From an uncultured Candidatus Saccharibacteria bacterium (GTDB lineage Bacteria > Patescibacteriota > UBA1384 > DTJR01), in NCBI GenBank assembly GCA_964487045.1, contig CAZAOT010000001.1, positions 70,745-134,744 on the forward strand: DNA of 64,000 bases, in the 5' to 3' direction. This document shows positions 28,744 to 58,628 of the stretch, one piece after another; within the stretch, counting starts at the first letter, position 1, and every line of letters begins with the position of its first letter. The position numbers and the translations under genes were made by a program. Under the pieces are notes generated by a model that was not told the origin of the DNA, did no database searches, and saw only the letters and a list, made by a program, of their open reading frames with translations.

Positions 28744-28752
28744 CTATTAGCC

Positions 28753-28781
28753 TTGACTAATTGTCCGATAAGGAGTAAAAT
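28753..28781 (+). promoter_or_regulatory. Sigma70-like promoter TTGACT-17-TAAAAT for the GC-rich Cys-rich gene
   Basis: Hexamers and 17-nt spacer read directly. Confidence 0.45.
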
Positions 28782-28823
28782 CTAACCACTTCGTTGTTCA
28801 CACCATTCTCTGGAGGAAGCAAG

Positions 28824-29483
28824 ATGTCGAGTAGTCGATTGTATTTCCGCGAAGAACCGCCGGTTGCGGAGGGTGTCTTGCCGTCGCTTGGCGGATCGGG
28901 CCTGAATATTCCGCCGGATGAGCTGGCGAGACGCCAGCGTTGTCGCGGCAATCACAAGGAGCTACCGAACCCGCAGAAGTACGGGTATCCGGTGAGCCTC
29001 GAGCACTGCGACTGTAACCGCTGCGAGGCGGTTGGGGACTGCAGCGCTCGCCTCGATGCTTTGCGTGCGATCTGCGCTGAAGCAATGGAGTTCGATAAGG
29101 AGACGATGCTCTTCTTCGCTGGATCCGAGGTCTGCCAGTCGTGCCGGTACTTCGCCGAGTGTTCTGCTCGGTCTGAGGCGCGGCGCAGTCACTGCGTTGC
29201 TCCTGAAGAGGAAAAGCCGAAGCCCAAGCGCCGACCTACGATTGAGGAGTGGCATGAGCGACATGCGCCGGCTGGCGGACCCGAGTTCTTCGGCTGGCCC
29301 TTGATCGAGTCATCGCTGGCTTGCCAGTGCTGCCCCGACTTGAAGGGTTGCCTGAAGGAAGTCGCACGCCAGAGCATGTGCGCTGACGGCAAGCCGAAGA
29401 AGGGCGATATTGAGACTCCCTTCGACCCCAGGCACCCTGCGTGTAAGGCATGTGGACACTGCGAAGCGCTTCGCGCAACGTAG
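28824..29483 (+). CDS. Cys-rich hypothetical protein (219 aa) in a GC-rich island; paired-Cys motifs CDCNRC, CQSCRYFAEC, CQCCPDLKGC, CKACGHC (putative metal-binding)
   Basis: SD GGAGGAAG 7 nt before the ATG at 28824; the track TTG start at 28794 is probably an over-extension. GC3-rich codons. Followed by hairpin gggtggc…gccaccc at ~29507-29536. Confidence 0.5.
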   Translation: MSSSRLYFREEPPVAEGVLPSLGGSGLNIPPDELARRQRCRGNHKELPNPQKYGYPVSLEHCDCNRCEAVGDCSARLDALRAICAEAMEFDKETMLFFAGSEVCQSCRYFAECSARSEARRSHCVAPEEEKPKPKRRPTIEEWHERHAPAGGPEFFGWPLIESSLACQCCPDLKGCLKEVARQSMCADGKPKKGDIETPFDPRHPACKACGHCEALRAT

Positions 29484-29747: not shown

Positions 29748-29822
29748 GGCCCCTTCGTCTAGTGGTTAGGACGTCAGGTTCTCATCCTGGCAACGAGGGT
29801 TCGATTCCCTCAGGGGTCACCA
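29748..29822 (+). tRNA. tRNA-Glu (anticodon CTC), CCA encoded
   Basis: Cloverleaf by hand: acceptor GGCCCCT/AGGGGTC, D-loop AGTGGTTAG, anticodon stem TCAGG/CCTGG with loop TTCTCAT, T-arm GAGGGTTCGATTCCCTC, discriminator A + CCA. Followed by T6. Confidence 0.9.
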
Positions 29823-30497: not shown

Positions 30498-30713
30498 ATG
30501 AAAAATAGGTTGATTTTAGGTAGTAGCTCACTTCTGACAGGACTGGCGTTATTCTTTTTTGCTCTAAAAAGCGACCCATCAGCTCAGGCTGATGTAATTG
30601 CACTTGATCCGATGGCGGCCGCGCGATTTCAAATAGTTCTCTATGGCGGTATTCTGTTAGTGCTTATTTCTTTTGTCTTTTTCGTCTTGGCTGCAACTTC
30701 GTCAAAAGACTAA
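30498..30713 (+). CDS. Small hypothetical membrane protein (71 aa, 2 TM)
   Basis: ORF with two hydrophobic segments; no family recognised. Confidence 0.35.
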   Translation: MKNRLILGSSSLLTGLALFFFALKSDPSAQADVIALDPMAAARFQIVLYGGILLVLISFVFFVLAATSSKD

Positions 30714-31978
30714 AGTCTGTAAAGATAGAACCAAAAAACTGATTTTGCCGGTATAGCTTCCTCTGGGAAGCTAATTTTCTTTAAGGCTACTCCAGATGAA
30801 TTTCCCGAAACGATATAAACTTCGCTAGATGCCTTCTTCTCGATAACTAATTGCCTAATTTTATACTTCTTGGCAAGTGTCTTCCCGTTTGAAAAATTAT
30901 ACTCGGAGTCATCGGTAATTTCCTTGTCTGAAGAATTGTAGAGTAAATTCCAGCCGATTGAAGGAGTAAGCGAGCTTTGTGAGTCAGTTGGGCTTGGGTC
31001 AAGCATTTTTTTGTCTTTATTGGAGCTGTATACGAGCGCGCCAGCATTTTGAGCAAATATTGATTGCGAGTCAGAACTTTTTATCCATTTTCCTCCAAGT
31101 AGCTGGTAAGCATCGAGGTTGTTTGATTCGAATAGATCATTTTTAGAGTTTTTTTCAAAACCAATTACACTCCAGCCCGGATAGAAAGTATATTTGCTAA
31201 TATTTGATAAAGAGGTGACCGAGGGGACTGCACTAGCTGTCTGTGATGGTGAAGGCGTAGACGAAACAGAAGTAGGAGGACTAGCTATAGGCGATGTTTC
31301 GGGGGATCTGGCAATAGAACTAGTGGGAGTGGGAGTCTCCTGAAAGGCTTTTTCTACCGAAAATGGGAGCATATTGCCTGAGGAAGCATCTTGCTCAACC
31401 TTAGGATCCTTTTCTAACTCAATTAGGCTAATACTCGATATATTTATTGTGCTTTCGCCCGAGAGGAAAATATAAAAATAATTGTCTCTAAAATTATCGT
31501 CGATATTAAAATATTTTTCGACTGTCGTTTCGTCTTTAGCTTCAGAGAGGGGATAAATCAGTGCATTTGGAGAAGAAACCCCGTTTTTTTGTATCCCAAA
31601 GTTCAGGATAGAAGATGGCTGAAAAATCGCAGTAGAATAGCTGATTTTTAGATGATAAGTTTTGTCCTTGCTTAAAGCAACTTTCTGGCTCAAAAGAGTA
31701 TAAGCATTGGCTTTATCATCTTGAGCGTTATTCTCAATGCGCAAAGTTGAGCTAACAACCTTAATGGAATTTAGCTCACTATTTGCTTTTTTGATCCATA
31801 CGTTGCTGTTTAATGACTCTTCCTTAAAATTAACATTTTTAAGAATTTGAACTTCAGGAGAAGATATATCAGCTGAGATCAGGCGGGAAATTTGGGGTGA
31901 CAGAAACAAAAGAAGTGCTAGCACACCCAAAATTGCCGCATATACAGGAAAATATTTGTTCAAATCCCGCTCCTTCAA
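30710..31978 (-). CDS. Secreted/anchored hypothetical protein with N-terminal signal anchor and S/T/P-rich linker
   Basis: N-terminal hydrophobic segment VYAAILGVLALLLFL; PTSS-rich segment mid-protein. Confidence 0.55.
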   Translation of the reverse strand: MKERDLNKYFPVYAAILGVLALLLFLSPQISRLISADISSPEVQILKNVNFKEESLNSNVWIKKANSELNSIKVVSSTLRIENNAQDDKANAYTLLSQKVALSKDKTYHLKISYSTAIFQPSSILNFGIQKNGVSSPNALIYPLSEAKDETTVEKYFNIDDNFRDNYFYIFLSGESTINISSISLIELEKDPKVEQDASSGNMLPFSVEKAFQETPTPTSSIARSPETSPIASPPTSVSSTPSPSQTASAVPSVTSLSNISKYTFYPGWSVIGFEKNSKNDLFESNNLDAYQLLGGKWIKSSDSQSIFAQNAGALVYSSNKDKKMLDPSPTDSQSSLTPSIGWNLLYNSSDKEITDDSEYNFSNGKTLAKKYKIRQLVIEKKASSEVYIVSGNSSGVALKKISFPEEAIPAKSVFWFYLYRL

Positions 31979-32617: not shown

Positions 32618-32646
32618 TTGGCCCCGGCAGTATCTGCCGGGGCCAA
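32618..32646. terminator. Perfect 13-bp GC-rich hairpin ttggccccggcag-tat-ctgccggggccaa between convergent genes
   Basis: Arms verified as reverse complements. Confidence 0.6.
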
Positions 32647-32664: not shown

Positions 32665-34158
32665 TTAGGCTGTTTTGGCAAACATATTCCAAATATCTAA
32701 AACGGTACTTCCAACTGAGGGGTTTGAAGTGCCCGATGATTGCTCTTCTGGATGTGTTGTCCTAGCTTCTGACCATTCTTCCGCGGAAGTATCATCAGAT
32801 GTTTCAGGTGGAGCGGAATATTGTTGCAAAAGCGTGCTGTACTCAGGAGAAGCAAAGCTTCTTGTCGCAAGGGTGAGAGCCGCGCCAGAGTTTCTAAATT
32901 TATTATTAAGAGCCTTTTGCCAAGTATCACTCAGGCGAAATAGCCCGGCCAGTTTATCGCTTTTAGAAAGTGCCTCGACAATTTGCGCCGGGGTAGATGT
33001 TTTTGGATCAATGTTGTAACGCTTCATTAACTCTTCTTTTGTGCTAACTCCTTCAGTTTGAAGAATTGTTTCAAAAAGCTGTTCACTATTATATGAAAAA
33101 TATCGTGCTCTAAAATCGATCAGGCTAGATGTGTTTTGTGCACCTTCGAGGAAGTGGGCGGTCATATCGGCCACAATTTCTTGAGCTGCGTGCATTCTAA
33201 GTTCCATTACTTTTTTTGGGTCGGTTTCGCTCTGAGAAGCTACAATTAAATCGCTAATATAGTTCCTAAAAAATGGCTTGGCTATTGTTGGATTAGCAAG
33301 AAGACTCAGAATTTCTTTAAGTTCTGGAGTGTCCGAAAAAGATTCGAGTCCAGAGTGGGGATTTTTAGCCGCTTCAAGAAAGCTAGTATATTTCGGTCCC
33401 CAGATTGAGAAAGCGGCCGCGTGGGCAAATTCGTGTCTAAGTAGGAAAGCCTTATCCGCGCCTTTTTCCTTGAAGAAATTATTATAAATAAAAATATTAA
33501 ATTTATTAGTTTTCTCGTCATAGGCAACATATGAATAAATATCAACGTTTTTATATTTTGCGTCTACTTCATCACCTGGAACGTCTTTGACAATGATCTC
33601 GCCATTTAGTATTCCAAGCATTTTTTCGCTTGATATCCGCTGATTTAAAATCATGCCATAAAAAGCTTCCCTGGCACTTTCAATTGTCTCAGCGGTCTGC
33701 TCAGCATTAATCTTGTTATCTATAAGCTTCTGATGAAGGGGAGCGATCAAGTTTGATTCAACTTGCATAAGTTGCTTAGCTAGTGCCTCGGGATTCTCCA
33801 CTGCAAAAACATCCTGCTTACTTTCGAGGTAGTTAACGAGAACTTCTTGACTGCAGCCGGTGCGGGTGAGCGCCTTGGCTAGATTCCTTGGCTCAAGGAG
33901 AGCAGCTTCGGCCGTACGTCTTTGATTTGCGACTTCTCTTTGGAGAACTCTTTCAAACTGCTCTTCTTGATCAATTTCGGGATCAGGATTAATTCTTTCC
34001 TCGGCTCTGAGCATTCTGAGAGAAAAATCTGATTCTTGGCTGGTTGGGATTGTTTCGATTGGCTGAGGCACTTGGTCTGTGTCATTAACGCCAGGAGACT
34101 CCATCGAAAAATCATCTTTTGAGCTATCTAATGTTGGTTCCTTCTCAGCGTTATCCAT
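32665..34158 (-). CDS. Hypothetical soluble protein with HExxH zinc-metallopeptidase motif (LLRHEFAHAAAF); last gene of the 32665-42999 operon
   Basis: HEFAH read directly; no TM segments. Acidic N-terminal region. Abuts the upstream gene (34159). Confidence 0.55.
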   Translation of the reverse strand: MDNAEKEPTLDSSKDDFSMESPGVNDTDQVPQPIETIPTSQESDFSLRMLRAEERINPDPEIDQEEQFERVLQREVANQRRTAEAALLEPRNLAKALTRTGCSQEVLVNYLESKQDVFAVENPEALAKQLMQVESNLIAPLHQKLIDNKINAEQTAETIESAREAFYGMILNQRISSEKMLGILNGEIIVKDVPGDEVDAKYKNVDIYSYVAYDEKTNKFNIFIYNNFFKEKGADKAFLLRHEFAHAAAFSIWGPKYTSFLEAAKNPHSGLESFSDTPELKEILSLLANPTIAKPFFRNYISDLIVASQSETDPKKVMELRMHAAQEIVADMTAHFLEGAQNTSSLIDFRARYFSYNSEQLFETILQTEGVSTKEELMKRYNIDPKTSTPAQIVEALSKSDKLAGLFRLSDTWQKALNNKFRNSGAALTLATRSFASPEYSTLLQQYSAPPETSDDTSAEEWSEARTTHPEEQSSGTSNPSVGSTVLDIWNMFAKTA

Positions 34159-37100
34159 TTAGGCCTTTTTATTGCCAGCTGAAGATATATCTCCGATTTG
34201 CTGGTCAAATGATTTTCCATCTTTGGTCTCAGCGGATAGGATTGATTGGGCCTGTTTTTGATCGGAATCTATCTGATCAATGGATTTCATCGATTCATCC
34301 TCGTCTGTTTCAGGAACTTCTTTCTGATCATCTGGCTTTAGGGCGCTTGCCGGTTTTGTTACGGCAACTTCAGCGATTTGTCCCTCGATCGTTTTTCCTT
34401 CCTTGGTCTGTCCGGCCAAAATCCCACCAATCTGCTCGCTGATATGCGTGTCGAGTTGCTCTACAGCTTGAGTTGGATTACTTACGACGGTTTGCTCTTT
34501 TATCCCTGCCATCTTCATCTCGTCAATGGTGTTAACAACCTCTTCTCCTTTATCCTTGGTTCTTTCGATGTCTTCTACCGAAGGAGTAGCAGCGCCAGAT
34601 AGTGCCGTTCCTGGTGCGAAACTACTGACCTGCGAAACGGCTTTTTTTGCATCTTGGGGAGATGGGTTAGATGACAATGTTTTGACTGCTTGGGTAAGTT
34701 GGCCTTTTAGATCATCGAAGTTTCGGCTGCTGCCTGACTTGAAACTCTCAGAAACTTTTTGTACGACAGCTTTTCCAATAACTGACTTATCCTCTTTAAG
34801 AGCCTTTGAAATTTGTCCAATTGCATCTTGCGTAATATCCCTTGAATCAACGCTTTGTTTGATGGTGTTAACGATTTCTGGCGTGGCGGTGGTAGGCAGA
34901 TAGCGTTTTATTTGCTCAAACGGCAAACTGGGGTTCTGAGCGATCGCTACCGCAGTCTTGGCTGGAGTACCGGCGACTTGCAGAGTTTTAGCGATCGTCT
35001 CTTTGGACTTATTGTTTGTTTCTTTAAGCCTTTCGATATAGTAAGTCGCATTTTTGTCGAAATAAGTTTGATTTTGAGAATGAAGAGACTCAATAACCTT
35101 GCTAGTATTCTGGGTTGAAGTTGATAGGGGAGCTTGGCTTTCGAGATTAGCTCTGATTGCTGATTTTAAGTCGAGATAGCCAGAAGTGGCATCTTTATTG
35201 TCTTTCTCCATCTCAACTTTAAGCGCATTCTCATCTAGTGGAGATTTTTCAGAAGGTAAACCTCGCTTGAAATTGATGATTTTATTGTAGGCTGCTTCGG
35301 GATTCTTAAAATTAGTTTTTAGGTCTACGGGATTGATAATTCCTTGCTGCAGGGAAAGTTTGAGAACTTCTATTGGTAGCACATCGAGCATGCCTTTTTG
35401 CGCAAGAGACTTAACTGCCTCTGGATGAACGATGCGATTTTGATCTACAACTTTGGCCAAGCTAGTCACTTTGCGGGCGGCATCGGCGCGCATTAGCGCG
35501 CCTTGATTATCAAGAACCTGCCCGTTTTTATTTCTCAGCTCATTTACTATGTTTGTTTCGCGAAACAAAGATTGGTTGCTGGTGTTTAAAATTTTTCTGA
35601 ATGTTTGGGGCTTGATATCAGAAATGGTATTAACCAGCAATCCAGAAGGACGATCTAGGTTTGCTTTGTGAGCTTTAGCGCTGATACTTTCGACTTCGCG
35701 AGCATTTATTCCGCCAGTGCTTCGGTTGACGATTGACGAGAAGGTTCGGGCAAACGATCTTGTTTCTTCCTTGTTTGTCGTATTTGTAACGTTTCGGTTG
35801 AGGTTGCGATTGGTCGGAGCAATAATCGACTGGGCTGCCTTAGACTCCAGGATCTTATCTGTAACTACGCCGGCAGCATTTTGCTGTTTCACTTTTAGTT
35901 CGGCGTTAGCACCTTTGGACAAGCCAAGGTTGGCAGCTAAGGATGATTTGGAGAGGGATAAGCTTAGCTTCTTAATATCATTTTCGATCGTAAATGGCAG
36001 ACGAATTAAAAATATTATTACGGCGCTTTTTACTAAGATGCTTACTGCGAGCATAAGTCCGCCAGCCCCAGTTGGAGCCGAGACAGTATTCATAAGATAA
36101 AAAATAAAGTTTACTGCGGGGGTATAGAAAAGCGCGATTAGCATAATCGTCCACCATTTTCTAAATAATCCTTGGGTTTGCGGCATCACATAGCAAGCAA
36201 AAGCGATTGGTGAGATGACGGTAAGGATACCGACCACAATTGGTCGAAGCGCCAACACATATTCGAAGGCAAAAACGACGACCGAAGGAATGAAAATGAA
36301 AATCGTACCGAGTACGCCAGATACAAGAGAATATTTGTTGTCACTTGCGGCCGAACCCATAACGGTGCCACCAATATTGAAAATTACATTGAGCGCCTCC
36401 TGGCCCGCATTTACTGAATTGTAAACACCATGCAATCCGAGACTAGCTCCACCGCCCATGATGTTATAGAAAGGATGAACAGCGTTATAAGGAGAGAACA
36501 CTTGAAATTGATAGAGAAAATCGACACCACGCGAAAGGATAAAGATCATGTAGATTGCAAGATATCCGCCGATTAGGGCAATGATAAGATTGGGAAGCAT
36601 CCGCTTGACCGTATAGGTATTGATATCGATATGCAGAATATTGGCAAAAGCAATTAAAAATAATAGAATCAAGCCTAGTGAAACGGCGATCCCGCGAACT
36701 ATCCTAAAGCCAGAATTTACCCAGCCACCTGGGCCGCTATTATTTGGCTCTAGGTCGGCAGTTAACTGAGAATAATTTTTATTATCATAAATTCCACTAT
36801 TTGTTCCGGTCGATAGAAGTTTGCCTACACCAAAAATGTTGTTTCCACTGACTTTAAGCGGGCCGCCAGAATTATTTGTTCCGGTGCAAAGTCCTGTTGT
36901 TGATCCAGGTGTGGCGCTAAGCGGAGAGGAAAAAGTTATTGAGTTGTCATAGTTCGACATTCCAACGGCCTGGATAGTACAGGTAGAGTTGGTAGCAAAT
37001 TCGGCGGTTGCGGAGGCGGAGACGGAGATAATAGCGCAAAATGGACCTTGCAAAATATTTTCTTTTTGAAATCTGAACATGTCATTGCAGATTCCTGTAA

Positions 37101-37293
37101 AATCTTTAGAGCTTGTAGAAGTAGGCGCTGATGTAGATCCGGCTAGGGAAGTGGTTGACCAGTCTTTGAAGCCTGCGTTGTTCGCTCCAGCATTGCCCAC
37201 ATTGAACTCTGCTTTAGCTTTGCTGGAGAAAGAAAAAGATAATGCTAAAGCTAACACTAGAAAACTTAAGTATTTTATTTTAATCAAACCCAA
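34159..37293 (-). CDS. Large polytopic membrane protein (1044 aa). Signal peptide, extracytoplasmic N-domain, 6-8 TM core, long hydrophilic C-terminal extension; VirB6/TrbL/TcpH-like architecture.
   Basis: Signal MGLIKIKYLSFLVLALALSFSFSSKAKA, then a multi-TM core (…GLFRKWWTIMLIALFYTPAVNFIFYL…) paralogous to 39383-42349, then a ~550-aa low-complexity hydrophilic tail. Confidence 0.6.
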   Translation of the reverse strand: MGLIKIKYLSFLVLALALSFSFSSKAKAEFNVGNAGANNAGFKDWSTTSLAGSTSAPTSTSSKDFTGICNDMFRFQKENILQGPFCAIISVSASATAEFATNSTCTIQAVGMSNYDNSITFSSPLSATPGSTTGLCTGTNNSGGPLKVSGNNIFGVGKLLSTGTNSGIYDNKNYSQLTADLEPNNSGPGGWVNSGFRIVRGIAVSLGLILLFLIAFANILHIDINTYTVKRMLPNLIIALIGGYLAIYMIFILSRGVDFLYQFQVFSPYNAVHPFYNIMGGGASLGLHGVYNSVNAGQEALNVIFNIGGTVMGSAASDNKYSLVSGVLGTIFIFIPSVVVFAFEYVLALRPIVVGILTVISPIAFACYVMPQTQGLFRKWWTIMLIALFYTPAVNFIFYLMNTVSAPTGAGGLMLAVSILVKSAVIIFLIRLPFTIENDIKKLSLSLSKSSLAANLGLSKGANAELKVKQQNAAGVVTDKILESKAAQSIIAPTNRNLNRNVTNTTNKEETRSFARTFSSIVNRSTGGINAREVESISAKAHKANLDRPSGLLVNTISDIKPQTFRKILNTSNQSLFRETNIVNELRNKNGQVLDNQGALMRADAARKVTSLAKVVDQNRIVHPEAVKSLAQKGMLDVLPIEVLKLSLQQGIINPVDLKTNFKNPEAAYNKIINFKRGLPSEKSPLDENALKVEMEKDNKDATSGYLDLKSAIRANLESQAPLSTSTQNTSKVIESLHSQNQTYFDKNATYYIERLKETNNKSKETIAKTLQVAGTPAKTAVAIAQNPSLPFEQIKRYLPTTATPEIVNTIKQSVDSRDITQDAIGQISKALKEDKSVIGKAVVQKVSESFKSGSSRNFDDLKGQLTQAVKTLSSNPSPQDAKKAVSQVSSFAPGTALSGAATPSVEDIERTKDKGEEVVNTIDEMKMAGIKEQTVVSNPTQAVEQLDTHISEQIGGILAGQTKEGKTIEGQIAEVAVTKPASALKPDDQKEVPETDEDESMKSIDQIDSDQKQAQSILSAETKDGKSFDQQIGDISSAGNKKA

Positions 37294-39004
37294 TATGTAC
37301 CCCTTTTGTATTGGTATCTTTCTTTATTATCTCATTTGGCGAAAGGTCTGGGAAGATCTCCTTGGCGCGTCTCGTCAATGTTTCGCCGATTCCAGACATT
37401 CCAGTTTTCAGATTTGAGTCAAAGTAAAGCGGTGGCACTAAAATTTTCGAGACAGGAAAATCACTCTCTTTTTCGGAATTTTCAGCGCTTTTTCTTAAGA
37501 TCAATTCTCCAACTTCGTATATTTGCTGCTGAGCTGCCTGCGGGCCATAGGTAGCAATATCTCGAAGTGCGAATTCTCCTGGTCCGTACAGCGATGAACC
37601 GAGTGATGTGATTGGGCTTTCCAACTTAGGATAGTAACCTACCGCGCAAAGATAATTTTCAGTTCCTGGAGCGACTACTGAAGGCCAGTTGAAATCGTAT
37701 TCAAGAGAAATTTTTGTTGGAGGTTCGATCTTTTTATTGCTTGTTACATCGGTGCATTTTATTTCACCGGCTGAAGTAATATCAAATTCATACGGCTCAT
37801 TTTCTTTGCCTGTTGCTGGGGAGGGAGAGCCTTTGTAGTGAATGGTGACTTTATATTGTTTTGAAATATCAGTCATAATACGAAGCGATCCTTCTGAAAT
37901 TTGATTTTCATCGATCGCTTTCTGACTGGCCGGATCATCAAAAACAAGAGCTCCAGATGACGTACTATTCTTTAAAAGACTTTTGATTGCTTTAACTGCC
38001 CAGACGGCTGGGTTTAACTGGTATAATTTCTCAACGACATACATCGTGTAGGCGATCGGGATAATCGCTATTATGGCGCAGCAGGCGAGCCATTTGACGC
38101 CTTTTTTGGCGAGTCGATCAGCACTCTCTACGCCTTCTTTTATCTTTACGCCTTCTTTTCCAATTTTGATTGCTGTCTTGGCAACTTTGGGAGCGTTTTT
38201 GGCTACCTCGGTTGCCGCCACTGCGGCTAGAGACACACCAAGAGTTTCAGGGGCGGCGGCAATTTCTGCTCCTTCAGCCGCTGCTACAGCCCCTTCGCCA
38301 ATGGCTTCTGCGCCTTCAACTGCTTTTGCGCCCGCGTTGGCAGCCTGACCTCCGAGCTCAGCTACTTTTTCTCCAGCTCCTACGGCTTTACTGCCTGCGT
38401 CAGCTGCTTTCTCTCCAGCTCCGACTACTTTTCCGCCCGCGTTGGCAGCTTGCTCGGCTCCGTTTGCACCTTCTTGAATTCCTTCTGCGCCACCCGACAC
38501 GGCTTCGCCAGCCGGAGGAGTTTCTCCTGCGGGTGTCCCTGGCTCGGGCGCTCCCTCGGGTGTTTCAGCGTCAGGAGTTTCAGGATTTTCGCCTTGCGTA
38601 TTCCACTCAGGATGCTTTTCTCTAAAAGCCGCTAGGTTTTCGTCGTAGTTTTTATAGTAATCGCCAGCATTAGCCCTGGTCCCGTCGGCATTTCTCATCA
38701 CCTCATCCCTTATTCCTGGTCTTAGCCGTCCGTATTCGTCTTCATTTGGATTTTTGAGCGTTCCATCTTCCCTCTGATTGACTTTCTTCGAGCCATTCTC
38801 TGAATTTGGCTCGTCTGATTTATTTAACCCAAGCTTATCGCGAACAAATTTTTCTCCGCGACCTCGGTTGAAGGTACTATCAACATTTTTTAGATCATCG
38901 ACGCTGTCATATGCATCGCTAATAAAACCGCCATCATCATTATGCCTAGGGCTTCTTGCTTGTGCTTCTTCAAGTTCTCGTTGTCGCTGTTCGTCAACTA
39001 CCAT
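37280..39004 (-). CDS. Bitopic membrane protein (574 aa). Acidic/Pro-rich cytoplasmic N-region, Ala/Gly-rich repeats (GAGEKAADAGSKAVGAGEKVAELGGQAANAGAKAVEGAEAIGEGA), single TM, ~250-aa C-terminal domain.
   Basis: Read from translation; TM WLACCAIIAIIPIAYTMYVV. Overlaps its neighbours by 11 and 14 nt. Confidence 0.6.
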   Translation of the reverse strand: MVVDEQRQRELEEAQARSPRHNDDGGFISDAYDSVDDLKNVDSTFNRGRGEKFVRDKLGLNKSDEPNSENGSKKVNQREDGTLKNPNEDEYGRLRPGIRDEVMRNADGTRANAGDYYKNYDENLAAFREKHPEWNTQGENPETPDAETPEGAPEPGTPAGETPPAGEAVSGGAEGIQEGANGAEQAANAGGKVVGAGEKAADAGSKAVGAGEKVAELGGQAANAGAKAVEGAEAIGEGAVAAAEGAEIAAAPETLGVSLAAVAATEVAKNAPKVAKTAIKIGKEGVKIKEGVESADRLAKKGVKWLACCAIIAIIPIAYTMYVVEKLYQLNPAVWAVKAIKSLLKNSTSSGALVFDDPASQKAIDENQISEGSLRIMTDISKQYKVTIHYKGSPSPATGKENEPYEFDITSAGEIKCTDVTSNKKIEPPTKISLEYDFNWPSVVAPGTENYLCAVGYYPKLESPITSLGSSLYGPGEFALRDIATYGPQAAQQQIYEVGELILRKSAENSEKESDFPVSKILVPPLYFDSNLKTGMSGIGETLTRRAKEIFPDLSPNEIIKKDTNTKGVHIGFD

Positions 39005-39386
39005 TGTTAGCTTTATTTATTTCTTCTTTGAGGGCTTGCTCAAGGTAGATAAAAATATTTATTTGTAGATAAGCGAATATGTCCTTATTATTCTGGTTGG
39101 TAATTGCTTTCAAACAATTATTGACTGTCTTGTCTATAACAGATTCTCTAAACATAACATCTTGGTTAATAAAATAATTCCCATAAGCCAGCTCGAAGTA
39201 TGTTAAGGCCAACGATCGAATCTTTGATTTTAAGCTTCGTTGCTCAAGTATTTTTATAGAACCAAAATCTGTCCATCCAGCTCGTAAATATTCAGCATAA
39301 TCACATAATCTTGCAGTCTGCCGCGCTGCAATCTCTTCAAGGGCTATCCTATGCTGCAAAAGGTTTTTATCAGTTATTATTTTCAT
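38994..39386 (-). CDS. Small cytoplasmic hypothetical protein (130 aa)
   Basis: ORF translationally coupled in the operon (4-nt overlap upstream, 11-nt overlap downstream). Confidence 0.45.
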   Translation of the reverse strand: MKIITDKNLLQHRIALEEIAARQTARLCDYAEYLRAGWTDFGSIKILEQRSLKSKIRSLALTYFELAYGNYFINQDVMFRESVIDKTVNNCLKAITNQNNKDIFAYLQINIFIYLEQALKEEINKANNGS

Positions 39387-42349
39387 ATATTTCTTTCATT
39401 TGGGTTTCTTATTGTTGCAGCAGAGATTGCCCGTTTTAGTTCTTCAATAACTGGCCTATCAATTTCAGATCCATTTGGTAATCCAGCTATTTGGGCAGCG
39501 ATGAAGTCTTTAGCTTGCTTTAATTCTTCGGGGGGGACACTACTTGGATCCGTAGAATGTCTATCGAAAGTTTCGACAGACTTAATAATTTGTGGTACAG
39601 AGGCTCCTTGATTGATGGATAGTTTGCCGGCAATTCTAAGCACAGCTTGATTATCATCTTTTGCATGTGATGATCCCATGACTTTAATTGAAGCTGCTGA
39701 AACACCCAGGATTCGGTCTTCAAGTTCCTTGTCAATATTTCCATCAGGGTAAAACTCTTGCTTTACTTTTGTAAGTATTTCAGGAGCATTTGTTCCTCGC
39801 GATGCTTCGAGATCTTGTACGAGTTTTGATATCTCAGCCTTTTTGGATGGGTCTTTTCTGGTTAAAATGTTTCCTATTTCTGCTAATCCGATTTCAGTTT
39901 CATTATTTAAGCTGTCGATGTCTTCGGGCGATAGGTTATTTGATTGTTGAGCGCCTAGTAAACTCCTTATTCTTTCCAGGGGGTTACCTGTAGTAACTCT
40001 AAGTTGTGTTTTTAATCCACCTAAAGAATCGTTGATTTCTCTTAAATGTTGAGACACACCCGACAAACCTTCGGCAACCTCTGCTCCGTAGTCTTCTGGG
40101 ATATCAGCCCCTGGGCCGTCGCCGGAATAAAAATCCTGAAGGCTTGGGCCTCGACCGCCATTGGGCGCTCCGCTTGGTCCACCTGAAGTGGGTCCGCTAG
40201 CTCCTCCTGGGGGCGTTCCTCCTCCTTGCGGCCTAGGTCTTCTAGGTGTGGTTGGTGGGGTCGGAGATCCGTTATCTCCTAATATATATTCAACAACCTT
40301 TCTATTTACGAGAGCCTGCTGTGTCTCAATAGGAACGTGACTTCTAGCTTCCCTGGCTAATAATTTCTGAAGCTGATCAAAAAGAGGTTTCGCTAAGTTT
40401 AGGTTGTCTTCAAAAGTTCTTGCTTGTCCTCCAGCTTTCCATCTTTCACCCCTTTCGTTCTTGTTCCAATTTTTTCTCATTGCTGCAAAAACTCTTTGAT
40501 AGCCTGGCATATTGTCATCATTAACTCGTTCTTTTTGTAAAAGCTTAGTCATAAAATCAAATGCTTTTGCTTGTCTATCTGGATCATTTGCTGGGGCTAT
40601 TTCTCGTTCTATATTTCTAAGCAGGTTGACCAAAGCATATTTATACTCCTCTAGGTCGGATGATTTTTCAGTATGGGACAGATCGGAACCTAATCGTTCT
40701 ACCTCTGATTTAGTTCTTGCATAAGGACTAGCAAATCTCTTAAACGCCCAGTTCGTTCTTCTGCGCGCCTTATCCTCTTCTTTAGCATCTGATTCTGCAG
40801 ATTCTTTTATTGCACCCGCCCATCCAGAGATTAAACTTGCGGGGCCATACTGCTCAAGTGCAAACAAGGTTTTGTAAGGTAAGCTTCCTTGCAAATTATC
40901 GCTTAGCTGTTTCTCCCTAGATTCTTCTGCTTGAGTATAATAAGTTCGCAGTAATCCCGCTTCGGATGTATTCCTTACCTCATCTTCATTCTCGGAAAAA
41001 AATCGATTGGCTTCTATATCATCATGTTGATTTGGTTCCAGAGCATTGTTTTGGTATCTGTCGTAATATTCTTCTATTTGCTCATCCGAGATATTGCCTA
41101 TCGGAATATTCGCACCGAACATGTTCGTTCTGGCATTATCATCCTCGGCAAGTCTTTGCCTAAATCCTGAAATTTGATATTGACGGAGCGCTGCCTGGCC
41201 TTCATTACTCTGCAGTTTATCTCTTGCCGCATTATCGAATTTTCCTGCACTTCGTTCTTTCATCATGGTTGTACTAATACCTGCTTCCAAGCCGCGTCTT
41301 CTTTCGTATAATGCTCTTGGAATTTTCTTAGAATAATCTGCAACCGCAAGGCCTTTTTTGTATCCCGATGTTACTTGACCAGGAAGGGCAGCTATTGCTC
41401 CGCTAACATCTTTTTCCCACGTAAATGGTGCTCTGACTGCGAAGGCAAATAGAGCGATTTTTAAAACCATCGGTATTAGATTTCCAATTAAGCTCGACAG
41501 GAAGCCATCCCCGACTGCTCCTGCCATAGAAGGAATTAGTTTAGCTAGATAATAAATGACGGCGAGTAGTAGTGGATAATAAATCCAAAAAACAAGTATT
41601 TTCCACCATTTTTTAAACACCCCTTCGGTTTCAGGAAGAGCTGATAGGCCGACTGCAACTGGTCCAAAGGCAACGGCAAGTAGTACGATCCAAGGTCTTA
41701 GAGAATGAAATAAACCAAGCATTAAAAGTGCGCCTACTAAGAATATATTCATAATAACAGGCACAAGTGCTAGCAAACTACCGATGGCAAAGTTGAGAAA
41801 CATTGTTAGGAATCCCAGGATTGTGCTTCCCCCTGATGTTACAGCTAAGCCTCCGCCCACCATACTAATCCAATCCCACGAACCTGGTGGGTGGAAGATT
41901 GGTACGGCACTTTGGAGCGCATCGAGAATTGATGACATGATTGTAGCGATCGGGAGAAGTAAGTTTCCCAGGAACGCGGCAAAGATTAATTTGGGAATAA
42001 TTTTTTTAATCGCATAAGTTTCGATATTCAAATTGAGGATATTTCTGAAGGCTACATATATTAAAAATAGAAAAAGGCAGATATTAAGCAGCCCTCGTGA
42101 GAAGGAGTAGAGTCTAAAAAACCATTCGTTTGAAAGTTTACCAGTTGATACATTGATATTAGTGCCATTTAGCATTTTGGTCAGGAATTGCGGATCAGCA
42201 GCATAGGTTATGGATGGCCCGCTGCTAATAGCAATTGATTCACTGGAGTTTGCTTTTATATCAATTGAAATAAAATTCCAGGCCGCTAGAGCAATAATAA
42301 TAAATAGTAGTGAATATATCTTTTTCATTTTCGATCGATAATTAAGCAT
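39383..42349 (-). CDS. Large polytopic membrane protein (988 aa), paralog of 34159-37293; VirB6/TrbL-like core with a Gly/Pro-rich segment (PRRPRPQGGGTPPGGASGPTSGGPSGAPNGG) and a long C-terminal hydrophilic domain
   Basis: Signal peptide MKKIYSLLFIIIALAAW. TM core with conserved …ALPETEGVFKKWWKILVFWIYYP… (compare VMPQTQGLFRKWWTIMLIALFYTP in the paralog). Gly/Pro-rich tracts are typical of TrbL C-termini. Confidence 0.6.
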   Translation of the reverse strand: MLNYRSKMKKIYSLLFIIIALAAWNFISIDIKANSSESIAISSGPSITYAADPQFLTKMLNGTNINVSTGKLSNEWFFRLYSFSRGLLNICLFLFLIYVAFRNILNLNIETYAIKKIIPKLIFAAFLGNLLLPIATIMSSILDALQSAVPIFHPPGSWDWISMVGGGLAVTSGGSTILGFLTMFLNFAIGSLLALVPVIMNIFLVGALLMLGLFHSLRPWIVLLAVAFGPVAVGLSALPETEGVFKKWWKILVFWIYYPLLLAVIYYLAKLIPSMAGAVGDGFLSSLIGNLIPMVLKIALFAFAVRAPFTWEKDVSGAIAALPGQVTSGYKKGLAVADYSKKIPRALYERRRGLEAGISTTMMKERSAGKFDNAARDKLQSNEGQAALRQYQISGFRQRLAEDDNARTNMFGANIPIGNISDEQIEEYYDRYQNNALEPNQHDDIEANRFFSENEDEVRNTSEAGLLRTYYTQAEESREKQLSDNLQGSLPYKTLFALEQYGPASLISGWAGAIKESAESDAKEEDKARRRTNWAFKRFASPYARTKSEVERLGSDLSHTEKSSDLEEYKYALVNLLRNIEREIAPANDPDRQAKAFDFMTKLLQKERVNDDNMPGYQRVFAAMRKNWNKNERGERWKAGGQARTFEDNLNLAKPLFDQLQKLLAREARSHVPIETQQALVNRKVVEYILGDNGSPTPPTTPRRPRPQGGGTPPGGASGPTSGGPSGAPNGGRGPSLQDFYSGDGPGADIPEDYGAEVAEGLSGVSQHLREINDSLGGLKTQLRVTTGNPLERIRSLLGAQQSNNLSPEDIDSLNNETEIGLAEIGNILTRKDPSKKAEISKLVQDLEASRGTNAPEILTKVKQEFYPDGNIDKELEDRILGVSAASIKVMGSSHAKDDNQAVLRIAGKLSINQGASVPQIIKSVETFDRHSTDPSSVPPEELKQAKDFIAAQIAGLPNGSEIDRPVIEELKRAISAATIRNPNERNI

Positions 42350-42999
42350 GCTCCACCTTTGTATTCGTATTTCAGGTCATTGTTGTAGTTGGTCTGCAAT
42401 GCTGAGGCGTGAAAGGAGCAGGCGAGTTGTGCCAGAGGCTCCATAATCTTAGTTGTAATGAAGTTAGTAGCATCGCAAGTCATTTTCTCAATCGAATTTG
42501 ACCAGCTGCTGGAGAGTCCGGCCATTTCGCAAACGGTTTTGTTATTGTATGGACTATTGCGAGTGTCAACGATAGTCAATTCGTTGTTTGTAACTGTCCA
42601 GTCGAGAGGCCCGGCATTTGGTGCGGGAGTAATTGTGACCTTGTACCACCTAACGCCATTTTGGTCGACTGTCGAGACAGGTGTGCGGGCAGTCGATGGC
42701 GTCGTTAGGGTTGATGTGCCAGATTGAGTCGCACCTGGCGTTTTTGACTCTAGTGTATCAGCCGAGTCTGAAGAGGTGGGGCTTACTAGATCTCCAATTG
42801 GAAGCCCTGCGCCGGCGCTATTGTCAGCGCCCGGCTGCTCGGTGAAGAAACCGTCTATTGGAGAAGAGTCAGTTATTGGGCTTTCAGACGGGAGGGTAAC
42901 ATTGTCGCTTTTGCGAGAGTTAAGGTATACAAACACAACAGCGATTATCAAAATCACTGCCAATCCTAGAGCAATTTTTGCTTTATTAGATAGCTGCAA
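42325..42999 (-). CDS. Membrane-anchored secreted protein (224 aa). N-terminal TM, S/T-rich linker, C-terminal 4-Cys globular domain; first gene of the operon.
   Basis: TTG start preceded by GGGAGGGG. TM ALGLAVILIIAVVFVYL. Confidence 0.55.
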   Translation of the reverse strand: MQLSNKAKIALGLAVILIIAVVFVYLNSRKSDNVTLPSESPITDSSPIDGFFTEQPGADNSAGAGLPIGDLVSPTSSDSADTLESKTPGATQSGTSTLTTPSTARTPVSTVDQNGVRWYKVTITPAPNAGPLDWTVTNNELTIVDTRNSPYNNKTVCEMAGLSSSWSNSIEKMTCDATNFITTKIMEPLAQLACSFHASALQTNYNNDLKYEYKGGACLIIDRK

Positions 43000-43089
43000 A
43001 ACCCCTCCCTAAGTTACTTACTAATTTTACCATACAAATAGGACAAGAAAAACCGCATTTTATTCAAAATAACTGACTATAGGCCTCGG

Positions 43090-43119
43090 TTTACAATCTT
43101 GTCGAAATTGGACTAAAAT
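43090..43119 (+). promoter_or_regulatory. Candidate sigma70 promoter TTTACA-18-TAAAAT for the glycan-locus operon
   Basis: Hexamers read directly in the divergent intergenic region. Confidence 0.35.
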
Positions 43120-43166
43120 AGGTCAAACTCTTTAATTCTCTTCCTATATATAGTAATCTTTAGCAG

Positions 43167-44642
43167 ATGAGTTACACAAAAAAAGTTGCTTTTAGCACAG
43201 CATCCCAGTTTGTCGGTAAATTCGCTGGGATAGCGATCTCTCTGGTTACAATTGGAATTTTATTTAGATTTTTAGGAGTCGAGGGATCGGGAAAGTACAC
43301 TACTACATTTGCCTTTACCTCATTTTTCGCTTTATTTGCCGATATAGGGCTTGGCTGGACTCTGCTTCGAGAACTCTCAATCAAGCAGACGAAAGAAGAA
43401 AAGAGTAAGGTTTTTAAGAATATCTTTACCTTAAGAATCATCTTAGGTATTGCGGTCTATGCAATTGCTTCAGCTTTGGTCTGGGCTTTTAATTATCCGA
43501 CAGACGTAAAAATGGCAGTTGGAGTTTTGGCGATCGCTTGGTTTTTCCAGTCACTAACTTCGAGCGTTGTTCAGATCTACCTCAATACTTATCGAATGGA
43601 TATTGCCGTTATGGGAGAAGTGGTAGGCAAGGCGTTCATATTGCTCTTTGTCTATCTCGCCTCAACTTCAGGGGGCAACCTAATTTCGGTCATGTTCGCT
43701 TATTTAGTGGGATGTTTTGTAAATTTTGTGATCGTTTGGCTCTTAGCTGGTAGATTCATTCCCACCGGGCTGGCTTTCGACAAAACCTATTGGCGCTATG
43801 CCCTGCGTCAGGCTATTCCGATTGGGATTACTTTGGTCTTTGGCTATGTTTATTACAAAGTTGACTCCCTGATGCTCTCTCTTCTTAAAGGAATGACCGA
43901 TGTAGGAATTTATGGCGCCCCTTACAAATTACTTGAAGTATTGCAAATGTTTCCCGCGCTATTTTTGGGAGCTTCATTCTCGCTTATAACCAAATACGTG
44001 ACCGATAAAGATGAGCGTGTAAACTCAGCTTTTCAGAAACAATTTGATTTTCTTTCGACAATTGCCTGGCCAGTTGTGATTGGAACTTTCGTGCTGGCTC
44101 TGCCGATAATTAAATTTATAACGGGCTCGGATGGCCAATTTGTAGACGCTTCGACAGTTACCATCCTCGGACTGCCTATGACTTCGGTAATATGTCTTAA
44201 GATCTTAATTTTCTCAGTTGGTGTCAATTTCTTCAGTTCGCTTTATAATTTTATGATCGTATCACTCGGTAAGCAAAAACAAATGGTCTGGCCGACAATC
44301 GGTTTTGCGCTTTTTAATGTAGCTTTGAACTGGTTCTTAATTCCAAGATACAGCTATATTGGAGCATCGGCAGCGACACTTCTGACTGAGGGCATGGTTC
44401 TCCTGACGACCTACTTTATTGCCAAGAAAAATATTTTTCTGCCGCTTCAATTTAATAATTTTGTTAAAATTGCTCTTAGCGCCATTGCGATGGGAATTGC
44501 GACCCACTACACTTATCAGTTGACCGGAGGATTATTCTTAAGTATTGTTGCCGCGCTTGTCGTCTATGGAGTGTTGGCGCTTGCTCTTGGCATAGTCCCA
44601 CAGGAGTTATTAAATAAAGTATTTAAATTTAAAAAATCATGA
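43167..44642 (+). CDS. Polysaccharide biosynthesis flippase (Wzx-like, MOP superfamily)
   Basis: ~12-14 predicted TM helices over 491 aa, MOP-flippase-like organisation. First gene of the glycosyltransferase cluster. Confidence 0.75.
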   Translation: MSYTKKVAFSTASQFVGKFAGIAISLVTIGILFRFLGVEGSGKYTTTFAFTSFFALFADIGLGWTLLRELSIKQTKEEKSKVFKNIFTLRIILGIAVYAIASALVWAFNYPTDVKMAVGVLAIAWFFQSLTSSVVQIYLNTYRMDIAVMGEVVGKAFILLFVYLASTSGGNLISVMFAYLVGCFVNFVIVWLLAGRFIPTGLAFDKTYWRYALRQAIPIGITLVFGYVYYKVDSLMLSLLKGMTDVGIYGAPYKLLEVLQMFPALFLGASFSLITKYVTDKDERVNSAFQKQFDFLSTIAWPVVIGTFVLALPIIKFITGSDGQFVDASTVTILGLPMTSVICLKILIFSVGVNFFSSLYNFMIVSLGKQKQMVWPTIGFALFNVALNWFLIPRYSYIGASAATLLTEGMVLLTTYFIAKKNIFLPLQFNNFVKIALSAIAMGIATHYTYQLTGGLFLSIVAALVVYGVLALALGIVPQELLNKVFKFKKS

Positions 44643-45730
44643 AAGTAGCAATTGATATTCAAACGACTCTAGGCAAGCCAACTGGCTTTGGTTTCTACGT
44701 ATCCAATCTAGTGGAAGCTTTAAAGAAGAGGACTGATAAGGATTTGGAGCTGGAGCTTATCAGTCCAAACTATGACCGCGATTTCTCTACACCACAGAGA
44801 TTTTACTGGGACCAATTTACTTATCCAAAAATCGCTAGAGCCAAGAAAGTCGATATTTTGCACCAACCTTGCTTCTCGGCGCCGCTTTCTTTCAATAAAC
44901 CGGTGGTTGTAACCATCCACGACATCATCAGCCTACTTTTTCCCGAGACCATTCCGTTTGCCTCTAGAATGTTTTATTCCAAATGGATGCCTTTTTCCTA
45001 CCGGAAAGCTTCTAAAATTATCACAATCTCTCAGTCTACGAAGCGAGACATTGTAAGAGTTTTAGGAATTCCCGAGAGTAAAATTACGGTTATTCCGCTT
45101 GGCTTTGATAAAAAAATGGAGGAGCGTCAGAGCAAAAATAAGATCGAGGAAGTGAAGAAGAAATATCACCTACCTCAAAATTATCTTCTCCACATTGGTA
45201 CTCTAGAGCCGCGAAAAAACCTCGATTTCTTAATTGATGTTTTTGCTGAAGTAATTCAAAAGGATGATAAAAATGATCTTCATCTTGTGATCACTGGCAA
45301 GAAGGGCTGGTATTATGAGGGCTTGTTTGAAAAGGTTAAAAATTTGTCTTTAGAGAAGAGGGTTATCTTTACCGGATATATTGACGAGGAAGATAAGGCG
45401 GCCATCTATCAGGGTGCTCGAATATTTACTTTCCCGTCGATTTATGAGGGCTTTGGTTTGCCACCACTTGAGGCGATGGCCGCCGGAATTCCGGTAATTT
45501 CTTCTAATACATCATCGATGCCCGAGGTAATTGGTGACGCTGGAATTTTGATCTCGCCATATGATAAATCGGCTTGGGTGAAGGCAATTTGCGACGTTGA
45601 TTCAAGTGAAAAACTGCGATCCGAGATGATAAGGAAAAATCTTGACCAAGTTAAAAAATTTTCGTGGGATAAAACCGCAGAAAAAACAATCGAAATATAT
45701 ACAAAGGTGTTCAATGAGCAAAAAGCCTAA
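44639..45730 (+). CDS. Glycosyltransferase family 4 (GT-B fold)
   Basis: C-terminal EX7E region …[36 protein letters not shown]…. Confidence 0.85.
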
Positions 45731-46802
45731 AATTATATTCATTTCCGAATCTATCAGGCGAGACTCCCATGCTCCAATGAGATTTTTTAAAGAGCTTGAA
45801 GTTGTCCATCTCTATCTAAATGCTCCTTATGGCGATATGTCGCAAGATGACCTTGAAGGTGCAAGACAAGTGAAAATCGAAAATTTATTGCAAGAATTGA
45901 TCGCTGAGAAACCAGACATTATCCAAGGCGCTGAACCATTTGGCTCAAGGCTAAGTCTAAAGCTTGCGAATATTTGCCTTAAAGCTTGCCAAAAGACAGG
46001 AGCAAAACTGGTTGTGCCAATTCTAGAAAATCGGCCACTTAGCGAGAGATTTAATTTGGTTCAACGAGCAGTGCTTAGAGCTTTCTGTCCTGGCTATTTC
46101 AAATTTGCTAGTGCGGTGGTTGTCTTGAACAAAGGCGCGAAAGTCAATGTCAAAGCTTACGCCAAAAATGCCAAAATAATTGAAGGAATTGTTTGGGGGG
46201 TGTGGGGAGTTGATACAGATCTTTTCAAAAAAATTGCAGAAAAAGAGAAGAATAGTTTGATCTATGTGGGGCGCTTGGTAGAGGACAAGGGGCTAAAGTA
46301 TATGCTCGAGGGTTTTGCAAAATCTTGTGAAAAAATATCAGATTTAAAGCTTAGGCTGGCTGGACGAGGGGACTATGAAGAGCAGATGCGCAGTTTTATC
46401 AAAGAAAGAAATTTAGAGTCAAATGTGAAATTCTTAGGCTTAGTCAAAAATACCGAATTGCCAAAATATTTCTCAAAAGCGGAGCTTTGTATCTATCCTT
46501 CGATTACAATGAAGCGTTGGGAAGAACAGGTTGGCACGGTTAATTTTCAGGCAATGGCCTGTGAGACGCCAGTCGTGACGACTAAAAGTGGCGCAATTCC
46601 TGAATACATAAAGGACGGTGAGGGAGCATTTCTTGTCAAAGAAAAAAGTGCGGAAGCGATTAGCGTAGCAGTCTTAGATTATTTTTCAGATCGAAAGCGG
46701 ATGCTGGAGGTGCAGAAGCGAGCCAGAAATTTTGTGATGAGATATGATATAAGAAGCGAGATTGCCAAAGCGGAAAAATTATTACTTGAAATAATAAAGT
46801 GA
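45714..46802 (+). CDS. Glycosyltransferase family 4 (second paralog)
   Basis: …[18 protein letters not shown]…[20 protein letters not shown]… Start taken at MSKKPKIIF, preceded by AAGGTG; the track start is 45642. Confidence 0.75.
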
Positions 46803-50799: not shown

Positions 50800-50943
50800 G
50801 TTATCTGCTCGCTAGCGAAATCTAATAAATTCGATCTCTAGACGATTTTTTTCTTAAAGCGAGTTTTTCTAAACTTGCATTTTTTTGCAGCTTAAGCTTC
50901 AATCAAAATATATTATTACAGGTTTATTAATATTAATATTTTA

Positions 50944-54024: not shown

Positions 54025-54025
54025 T

Positions 54026-55183: not shown

Positions 55184-55259
55184 TATTTATAAGATATCTT
55201 CTTTTTACCTTAGTCGCAAATTGTTTACTTTTAAGAAGAAAAATTGTACATTGAGAGCA

Positions 55260-57849: not shown

Positions 57850-57856
57850 GCTAAAC

Positions 57857-57906: not shown

Positions 57907-57927
57907 CGATCCTTGAGGAGGCAGGAA

Positions 57928-58608: not shown

Positions 58609-58628
58609 GCGTCTTTTGCTTTATCTCT

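Follow-up and report, generated by a model that had tools for sequence, protein, structure and literature searches.

A six-gene operon built around two giant membrane proteins

The locus described here is a minus-strand operon of six genes (42999..32665) on a stretch of 64,000 nucleotides from an uncultured Candidatus Saccharibacteria bacterium (assembly GCA_964487045.1, contig CAZAOT010000001.1, positions 70,745 to 134,744), which was analysed as a whole and is called the window below. A first-pass annotation made from the letters alone had described six tightly packed genes organised around two giant paralogous membrane proteins resembling VirB6/TrbL-type channel subunits of type IV secretion systems (T4SS), and the open reading frames (ORFs) lie at exactly the positions that it gave. 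Numbered g1 to g6 from the upstream end, the genes are packed closely: g1 and g2 share 25 nt, g2 and g3 share 4 nt, g3 and g4 share 11 nt and g4 and g5 share 14 nt, and g6 directly abuts g5. With the start codons of public gene calls (g2 of 981 aa, g5 of 1032 aa), the g1/g2 overlap is 4 nt and a 22-nt gap precedes g5. The genes and their boundaries are as follows.

43000..43166, no strand: divergent intergenic region of 167 bp between g1 and a polysaccharide flippase gene, with promoter-like sites on both strands
42325..42999, minus strand: g1, 224 aa, anchored in the membrane near its N-terminus (residues 9-27), with a Ser/Thr/Pro-rich linker that leads to a C-terminal four-cysteine (4-Cys) domain
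39383..42349, minus strand: g2, 988 aa (981 aa from an alternative ATG at 42328), extended VirB6/TrbL-family protein
38994..39386, minus strand: g3, 130 aa, small soluble protein
37280..39004, minus strand: g4, 574 aa, bitopic protein
34159..37293, minus strand: g5, 1044 aa (1032 aa in public calls, which start 12 codons later), extended VirB6/TrbL-family protein
32665..34158, minus strand: g6, 497 aa, soluble protein with an HExxH motif
32618..32646, no strand: perfect 13-bp G+C-rich hairpin, 19 nt past the g6 stop codon, with no U-tract after it on the minus strand

The minus-strand promoter-like site (43105..43076) has 10/12 matches, a figure that comes from a consensus scan alone and says nothing on function. 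At the other end, the hairpin is likely to be the 3' boundary of the transcription unit, to judge from its position and sequence. The GC content of the operon (0.42-0.45) is the same as that of the window. Since the operon recurs in about 35 independent related loci, its arrangement is not due to chance.

The g2 and g5 cores are divergent VirB6/TrbL-superfamily domains

The paralogy of g2 and g5 was borne out: their membrane cores align with an E-value of 6e-25 in BLASTP (26% identity over ~265 residues), and both core motifs quoted in the first-pass annotation are present. No other gene in the window encodes such a core. Profile searches and a fold comparison, which had been proposed as checks of the VirB6/TrbL assignment, gave a consistent picture. 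The g5 core matches Pfam TrbL (PF04610) over profile positions 51-212/215 with E=0.0043 and 17.3 bits, compared with a gathering score of 25.9. Among 27 family members, 14 match the same Pfam family (all below threshold, best E=4e-5) and no second family recurs, and two g2 orthologs (P0036 and P0023) carry precomputed PF19590 TrbL_3 tags from public pipelines. When the family profile was searched against all PDB sequences, the first match was TrwI, the VirB6 of plasmid R388 (E=0.038), a protein that in the R388 structure is modelled in a stalk complex with TrwJ/VirB5; residues P371, T373, F377 and W380 of g5 align with its P-T-x-x-F-F-x-x-W motif. The AlphaFold2 (AF2) model of g5, built from a 39-sequence alignment, has a mean predicted local distance difference test (pLDDT) score of 80, and a Foldseek search of the PDB with this model placed TrwI chains at ranks 1, 2 and 4-6 (probability 0.87-1.00), with ~270 aligned columns that cover the whole target and template-modelling (TM) scores of 0.30-0.43.

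Transitive homology leads to the same family. A core profile of 256 residues, run against 1.84 billion cluster representatives, yielded 23,909 matching proteins at E<=1e-3, of which 4,674 reach E<=1e-30, and most are 850-1100 aa long. Ten of these superfamily members were sampled, of which two exceed the TrbL gathering score of 25.9 (P0172 with 29.0 bits and P0100 with 27.5 bits) and three more come close; P0172 and P0100 themselves match the g2/g5 core profile at ~1e-49 to 1e-51. A more distant homolog, P0024 (phmmer 1.4e-11 to g5 and 1.6e-10 to g2), sits in a complete Saccharibacteria T4SS cluster (GCA_028286395.1), whose gene order is five T4SS pilins, the VirB6-like protein, PrgI, a TraC/TrsD-like protein, VirB4, a 976-aa protein and a lysozyme/C39 protein. 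A VirB6-PrgI-TraC-like order is also found at locus L042, again with a distant homolog. The 976-aa protein encoded between VirB4 and lysozyme/C39 (12161-15091 of L005, the locus of the Saccharibacteria cluster) has no family match and is unrelated to g2 and g5 by phmmer; it is a further large, uncharacterised protein linked to a T4SS.

Because these searches converge through sequence, transitive homology, fold and a homolog within a T4SS cluster, we assign the g2 and g5 cores to divergent VirB6/TrbL-superfamily domains, as the first-pass annotation had proposed; the assignment is cumulative and does not hang on one score. Two further suggestions fared less well. A likeness to PrgH was not recovered, as neither PrgH nor Tn916 Orf15 matched the core profile in hhalign (probability <1%, with single-sequence templates and low sensitivity). 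Nor is the core family undescribed, because it comprises ~24,000 cluster representatives, some members carry TrbL_3 tags, and VirB6 homologs of Patescibacteria T4SS have been published (PMC12102498, PMC10633639).

Architecture and topology of the giant paralogs

Both proteins extend the core on its C-terminal side by several hundred residues. The parts of g2 and g5 that could be delimited are listed here.

g2 membrane core: residues ~76-315, nt 41405-42124, minus strand; core profile match 2e-73
g5 4-Cys ectodomain: residues ~61-190, nt 36724-37113, minus strand
g5 membrane core: residues 191-450, nt 35944-36723, minus strand; R350, P362, A364, P371 and W380 invariant
g5 disordered linker: residues 469-527, minus strand
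g5 tail domain: residues 530-975, nt 34369-35706, minus strand; confidently predicted all-helical fold (AF2 pLDDT ~90)

The topology put forward in the first-pass annotation, with a signal peptide, an extracytoplasmic N-domain, a helical core and a very long hydrophilic extension, fits g5, in which a signal-like segment is followed by a 4-Cys ectodomain of ~170 aa, a 5-6-helix core and a ~600-aa tail. It fits g2 only in part, as only ~50 aa separate the N-terminal hydrophobic segment of g2 from the core and leave no room for a real N-domain. Hydropathy and the AF2 model together place the g5 helices at 191-219, 226-260, 323-359, 361-403 and 412-449, with an external loop at 255-322, so that the core shows the features by which VirB6/TrbL proteins are recognised, namely at least five hydrophobic helices, a large external loop after the second transmembrane helix and a conserved Trp-containing segment. 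Segments rich in Lys and Arg are found at 221-235 and 371-382 and directly behind the last hydrophobic helix. Conserved Cys pairs occur in all predicted ectodomains (the C-domains of g1 and g4 and the N-domain of g5) and in neither of the ~600-aa tails. The cores most likely have five spans each, an external N-terminus and an internal C-terminus, as in the classical VirB6 topology. Because the Lys- and Arg-rich loops fit a five-span model with an internal C-terminus, AF2 predicts five long helices, and the ectodomains carry Cys where the tails are Cys-free, we place the tails in the cytoplasm with moderate confidence.

The two tails are at best weakly related to each other (hhalign probability 57%, E=1e-4). 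That of g2 is Cys-free, spans ~670 aa and has a variable Gly/Pro/Ser linker near residue ~700. The Gly/Pro tract that had been taken as typical of TrbL tails is present there, yet it is a low-complexity linker whose length ranges from 19 to 66 aa among orthologs and is not diagnostic. A Foldseek search with the g5 tail domain (530-975) gave no informative structural neighbour.

Partner proteins

As described in the first-pass annotation, g1 combines a membrane anchor with four Cys, which are C157, C175, C194 and C218 of its C-terminal domain; orthologs were found at 17 loci. This domain is homologous to the N-terminal ectodomain of g5 (hhalign probability 89.5%, E=2e-6, 68 columns), with all four Cys aligned. 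Since g2 has no such domain, g1 and g2 together, judged by their sequences, reproduce the architecture of g5, and the operon amounts to a duplicated unit in which one copy is split. The small protein g3 (130 aa) is soluble, as had been noted, with no transmembrane segment. It is recognised in a minority of the orthologous operons (four distinct orthologs of at least 100 aa) and is therefore an accessory, variable member.

For g4, the bitopic arrangement that had been described held up: a low-complexity, Ala/Gly/Glu/Lys-rich N-region of ~300 aa, cytoplasmic by the positive-inside rule, is followed by a single transmembrane segment (residues 306-324, nt 38033-38089) and a conserved external domain of ~245 aa (nt 37283-38017) with invariant C417 and C453. 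The VirB8/VirB10-like reading attached to it found no support beyond this topology. The loci yielded 23 g4 orthologs, compared with three proteins from a homolog search alone, and the AF2 model from three sequences (pLDDT 44.7) is too poor for a fold search. No Pfam match to g4 was found at E<=1, a PDB profile search returned low-complexity noise, and hhalign against PrgL and PrgD stayed below 1% probability (single-sequence templates). Within the N-region, residues ~150-300 form a quasi-repetitive Ala/Gly/Glu/Lys-rich stretch (e.g. GAGEKAADAGSKAVGAGEKVAELGG) whose length varies greatly among orthologs and which creates a spurious 151-aa ORF on the opposite strand (38170-38625).

The last gene of the operon encodes a soluble HExxH protein, in agreement with the first-pass annotation: g6 has neither a signal peptide nor a transmembrane segment, and its HExxH motif (residues 242-246, nt 33421-33435) is kept in 20 of 21 orthologs. 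An invariant E327, which lies within an ExxAE/D helix 85 residues past HExxH, is a candidate third ligand. After a Gly/Ser-rich linker, the extreme C-terminus carries a conserved motif of the form hydrophobic-x-x-hydrophobic-W-D/E-x-x-T-G. On the strength of these motifs, g6 may be a zincin-type enzyme that docks via its C-terminal peptide, and a role as an effector is possible. No Pfam, NCBIfam or PDB match to g6 was found, its PDB profile search giving low-complexity noise as well, and an NCBIfam search with all six proteins gave nothing meaningful. Ribosomal L19e and OSCP, which appeared among the PDB profile matches of g4 and g6, were rejected as such noise.

Downstream of g6, and separated from it by 687 bp and a strong hairpin, lies a gene for a 422-aa protein with an N-terminal transmembrane segment and no family match (30710-31978, minus strand). 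This membrane protein gene follows g6 in a number of related loci as well (L007, L008, L018, L023, L024 and L027).

Conserved gene order in related loci

The order g1-g2-(g3)-g4-g5-g6 is kept in the ~35 related loci, which come from seven GTDB genomes, 25 metagenome contigs and several assembly contigs and in which g5 is between 29% and 62% identical. Assemblies that carry the operon include JAPLVK01, JAOUGE01, PEZV01, CAYYMZ01, CAZIOI01, CAZOJE01 and JBDRAU01. Among titled records, the nearest relatives of g5 belong to metagenome-assembled genomes named Candidatus Berkelbacteria or, loosely, 'uncultured Saccharibacteria'. A common ancestor of Berkelbacteria, Saccharibacteria and the Kazan group has been reported (PMC7427843). 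The flippase gene is divergent from g1 in 21 of the 21 loci whose sequence covers that flank, and an aminoacyl-tRNA synthetase gene (Pfam tRNA-synt_2b) recurs downstream of the operon in many related loci. Housekeeping neighbours among the relatives include this synthetase, S6-SSB-S18, EF-P and GroEL. Those large flank ORFs of the related loci that had no assignment turned out to encode Ig-repeat proteins, GroEL, peptidase M16, MacB/FtsX, Wzy and a tRNA synthetase; a Walker A motif is absent from all of them.

Upstream of g1 in the window, the first genes of the following cluster are those divergent from the operon.

43167-59844, mostly plus strand with one minus-strand gene at 54026-55183: surface-polysaccharide cluster

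Its content comprises a Polysacc_synt flippase, several GT4/GT2 glycosyltransferases, two Wzy_C O-antigen-ligase-like proteins, three PMT_2 proteins and a GtrA-fused GT2.

A probable VirB6-type channel module encoded apart from its ATPase

Considering these data together, we think it probable that this operon provides a Patescibacteria-type T4SS (monoderm and similar to mating-pair formation (MPF) class FATA) with its VirB6-type membrane channel or platform, which has been duplicated, extended, set apart from the ATPase locus and equipped with lineage-specific partners. The host would be a Berkelbacteria-like, ultra-small bacterium from the candidate phyla radiation (CPR). In such a complex, disulfide-type 4-Cys ectodomains would face the cell wall or the host side, one of them fused to g5 and the other supplied separately by g1 for g2, and the two Cys-free helical tails of ~600 aa would form a large cytoplasmic platform. 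The g4 protein would be a lineage-specific structural partner in the position held elsewhere by VirB8-like proteins, and g6 could be a client or substrate, or else a processing factor docking on the tails. The complex would work with a VirB4/TrsD/PrgI set encoded elsewhere in the genome.

Several observations weigh against this interpretation. At the level of the cores, g2 has no match to Pfam TrbL and g5 stays under its gathering score, and the Foldseek matches of g5 to TrwI have E-values of only 0.13-0.29 with TM-scores below 0.5. The genomic context offers no T4SS partner. Genes for VirB4, VirD4, PrgI/VirB3, TrsD and VirB2-like pilins were not found in the window, which spans 64 kb of a contig recorded with 320,625 bp, by Pfam scans or by phmmer with Saccharibacteria T4SS proteins, which upholds the earlier statement that a VirB4/VirD4 ATPase is absent from it. 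Likewise, the ~35 related loci, with flanks of up to 10 kb on each side, contain no VirB4, VirD4, PrgI/VirB3, TrsD or VirB2-like pilin genes, and phmmer with the proteins of the Saccharibacteria T4SS cluster against all window and locus ORFs gave VirB6 as the sole match. Where the upstream flank is covered, the only constant neighbour is the polysaccharide-synthesis cluster, not secretion genes. Finally, the g1, g3, g4 and g6 profiles match nothing in Saccharibacteria T4SS clusters, pCF10 or Tn916, so that no T4SS ancestry of the accessory set is apparent. When the core, g1, g3, g4 and the N-domain of g5 were compared by hhalign with PrgD-PcfA of pCF10 and Orf13/14/15/17 of Tn916, probabilities stayed below 1% throughout, with single-sequence templates and hence low sensitivity.

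The published distribution of T4SS genes in Patescibacteria bears directly on the isolation of the locus. VirB4, the universal T4SS hallmark, was found in 2,417 of 3,035 Patescibacteria genomes (80%), and 176 of 480 VirB6 homologs (37%) are not near virB4 (PMC12102498). As VirB4 is common and VirB6 often detached in Patescibacteria, such isolation is expected even for true T4SS parts. In the same survey, most Patescibacteria VirB6 homologs were caught by the proteobacterial (MPF-T) VirB6 profile and not by that of PrgH, and VirB8 homologs were rarely detectable (PMC12102498). No Berkelbacteria genome was found in the accessible part of the tables of this survey, and the Berkelbacteria-like clade may for that reason have been left out of it (PMC12102498). 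T4SS genes are essential for the epibiotic growth of Southlakia (PMC10633639).

Comparison with known systems

The closest known counterparts are the VirB6 proteins of Patescibacteria T4SS (Southlakia epibionticum SEML1_0006-0019; GCA_028286395.1), which share a homologous core (phmmer 1e-10 to 1e-11) and membership of the ~24,000-representative superfamily with g2 and g5 and resemble them in size (~900-1000 aa), in their monoderm CPR host and in the absence of a relaxase. In contrast to g2 and g5, which have no such neighbours, the Southlakia and Saccharibacteria VirB6 genes are clustered with genes for VirB2-like pilins, PrgI, TrsD, VirB4 and a lysozyme/peptidase. The operon further differs from these two systems in having two paralogs, a short or 4-Cys N-domain in place of one of ~400 aa, ~600-aa tails and four private accessory genes.

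TrwI of R388 (PF04610; PDB 7o3v/8rt9) is the best profile and Foldseek match, with a 5-6-helix core and a P-x-T-x-x-F-x-x-W region, whereas it has only 342 aa, lacks an ectodomain and a long tail, belongs to a diderm conjugative system and is only 16-20% identical to g2 and g5. PrgH of pCF10, Orf15/ConG of Tn916 and TcpH are likewise polytopic proteins of monoderms, some with large C-terminal cytoplasmic domains, but the core profile yields hhalign probabilities below 1% with PrgH and Tn916 Orf15.

VirB6 proteins that carry large hydrophilic domains form an established class, 'extended VirB6', of unknown function (PMC12857230). The rvh systems of Rickettsiales have several VirB6 paralogs in a row with large hydrophilic extensions (Alvarez-Martinez and Christie 2009, as cited in PMC12857230), and in Rickettsia the T4SS genes are scattered over separate loci of a reduced genome (PMC12102498). 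The analogy to these tandem paralogs, which the first-pass annotation had drawn, is apt as far as tandem arrangement and large extensions go; the Rickettsiales are unrelated diderm alphaproteobacteria, and the likeness is drawn from the literature, not from sequence comparison.

Alternative explanations

The alternative that survives best is that of an autonomous, exapted VirB6-family envelope complex, for instance a pore at the host contact, a platform for assembly at the cell surface or a partner of the neighbouring polysaccharide pathway, which is no longer tied to a VirB4-driven T4SS. The rigid synteny and the isolation from T4SS genes in the ~35 loci speak for it, as do the flippase/glycosyltransferase/Wzy cluster that is divergent from g1 wherever that flank is covered, the four co-conserved accessory genes with no detectable T4SS homologs, and long tails that are unlike Saccharibacteria VirB6 in size and architecture. 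We nevertheless consider it unlikely, given the high frequency of VirB4 and the fact that over a third of VirB6 genes are detached in Patescibacteria (PMC12102498); the adjacency to polysaccharide genes may also be synteny inherited within one clade. In its strongest form, which appears to us somewhat less likely still, this explanation holds that duplicated VirB6 channel proteins have become a self-sufficient, VirB4-independent envelope machine that acts at the site of host contact or in surface assembly. To our knowledge, no VirB6-family protein acts without VirB4. Just as doubtful is the composition that such a machine would have, namely a pair of pores derived from VirB6 whose ectodomains are disulfide-bonded, a bitopic partner of its own and a cytoplasmic HExxH protein docking by its C-terminal peptide.

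VirB6/TrbL proteins are typical of conjugative elements, and the operon could be the remnant or cargo of such an element (an integrative and conjugative element or a plasmid transfer module) from which the ATPase and the relaxase have been lost. A tyrosine recombinase gene at 19809-20750 and, in one relative, a serine recombinase ~10 kb from the operon would be in line with this origin. Yet the GC content of the operon (0.42-0.45) matches that of the window, housekeeping genes flank the locus in relatives, and no relaxase, type IV coupling protein or repeat boundary was found. The gene order is conserved down to 29% identity, which indicates a core locus of the chromosome that is inherited vertically. 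On account of composition and of the conserved synteny with housekeeping genes, we reject the mobile-element origin as very improbable.

That the cores belong to an unrelated transporter family and resemble VirB6 only as generic helical bundles, as might be read from the sub-threshold Pfam scores of g2 and g5, the Foldseek E-values above 0.1 and the negative hhalign results with PrgH and Tn916 Orf15, is largely refuted and hardly credible, since four independent searches reach VirB6/TrbL with no other family recurring, the alignments extend over almost all of the TrbL model and all of the TrwI chain, the conserved P-T-F-W motif included, and a homolog lies between pilin genes and PrgI/VirB4 in a T4SS cluster.

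Significance of the locus

What looks new here is the locus itself, a VirB6 operon with a fixed set of partners and a split ectodomain that is isolated from T4SS genes. T4SS genes are essential to the epibiotic life of the one genetically tractable Patescibacterium. Against this background, there is a CPR lineage in which the VirB6 channel genes are maintained as an extended, duplicated pair away from the ATPase, together with partners that current T4SS profiles miss; the features that stand out are the free-standing copy of a VirB6 ectodomain (g1) and a candidate client or processing enzyme (g6). The locus thus provides concrete candidates for the 'missing' VirB8-like and substrate components in Patescibacteria, and it can serve to test whether VirB6 proteins are able to function in the absence of VirB4. 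Should a VirB4 locus lie elsewhere in the genome, the result is a useful refinement of annotation and not a surprise; a VirB4-independent complex, if real, would be the first VirB6-family system outside T4SS.

Other features of the window

On the far side of the 422-aa membrane protein gene from the operon, a block of four plus-strand genes (26572-29483) encodes a 302-aa soluble protein, a 171-aa anchored protein, a membrane-anchored Peptidase_C39_2-like protein (27943-28743) and a 229-aa protein with 18 Cys. In about nine related loci (eight distinct contigs), the C39-like and 171-aa genes are again present, a few kb from the operon. As a VirB1-like partner, the C39-like protein reaches only E=0.012 with the Saccharibacteria T4SS lysozyme/C39 protein.

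The sole tRNA gene of the window is a tRNA-Glu with anticodon CTC (29748-29822, plus strand), and the tyrosine recombinase gene at 19809-20750 (minus strand) is of the XerC/D type; there is no sign of a bounding mobile element around the operon at either. The window, which also carries genes for GroEL, an H+-PPase and VanW, has the look of a chromosome from the CPR (Patescibacteria). Near its start, two plus-strand genes at 218-5998 (1926 aa) and 6745-14109 (2454 aa) encode giant predicted surface proteins in which NHL or Kelch beta-propeller repeats are followed by fn3/Big_3 domains, and which, from this domain composition, are candidate adhesins of an epibiotic CPR cell.

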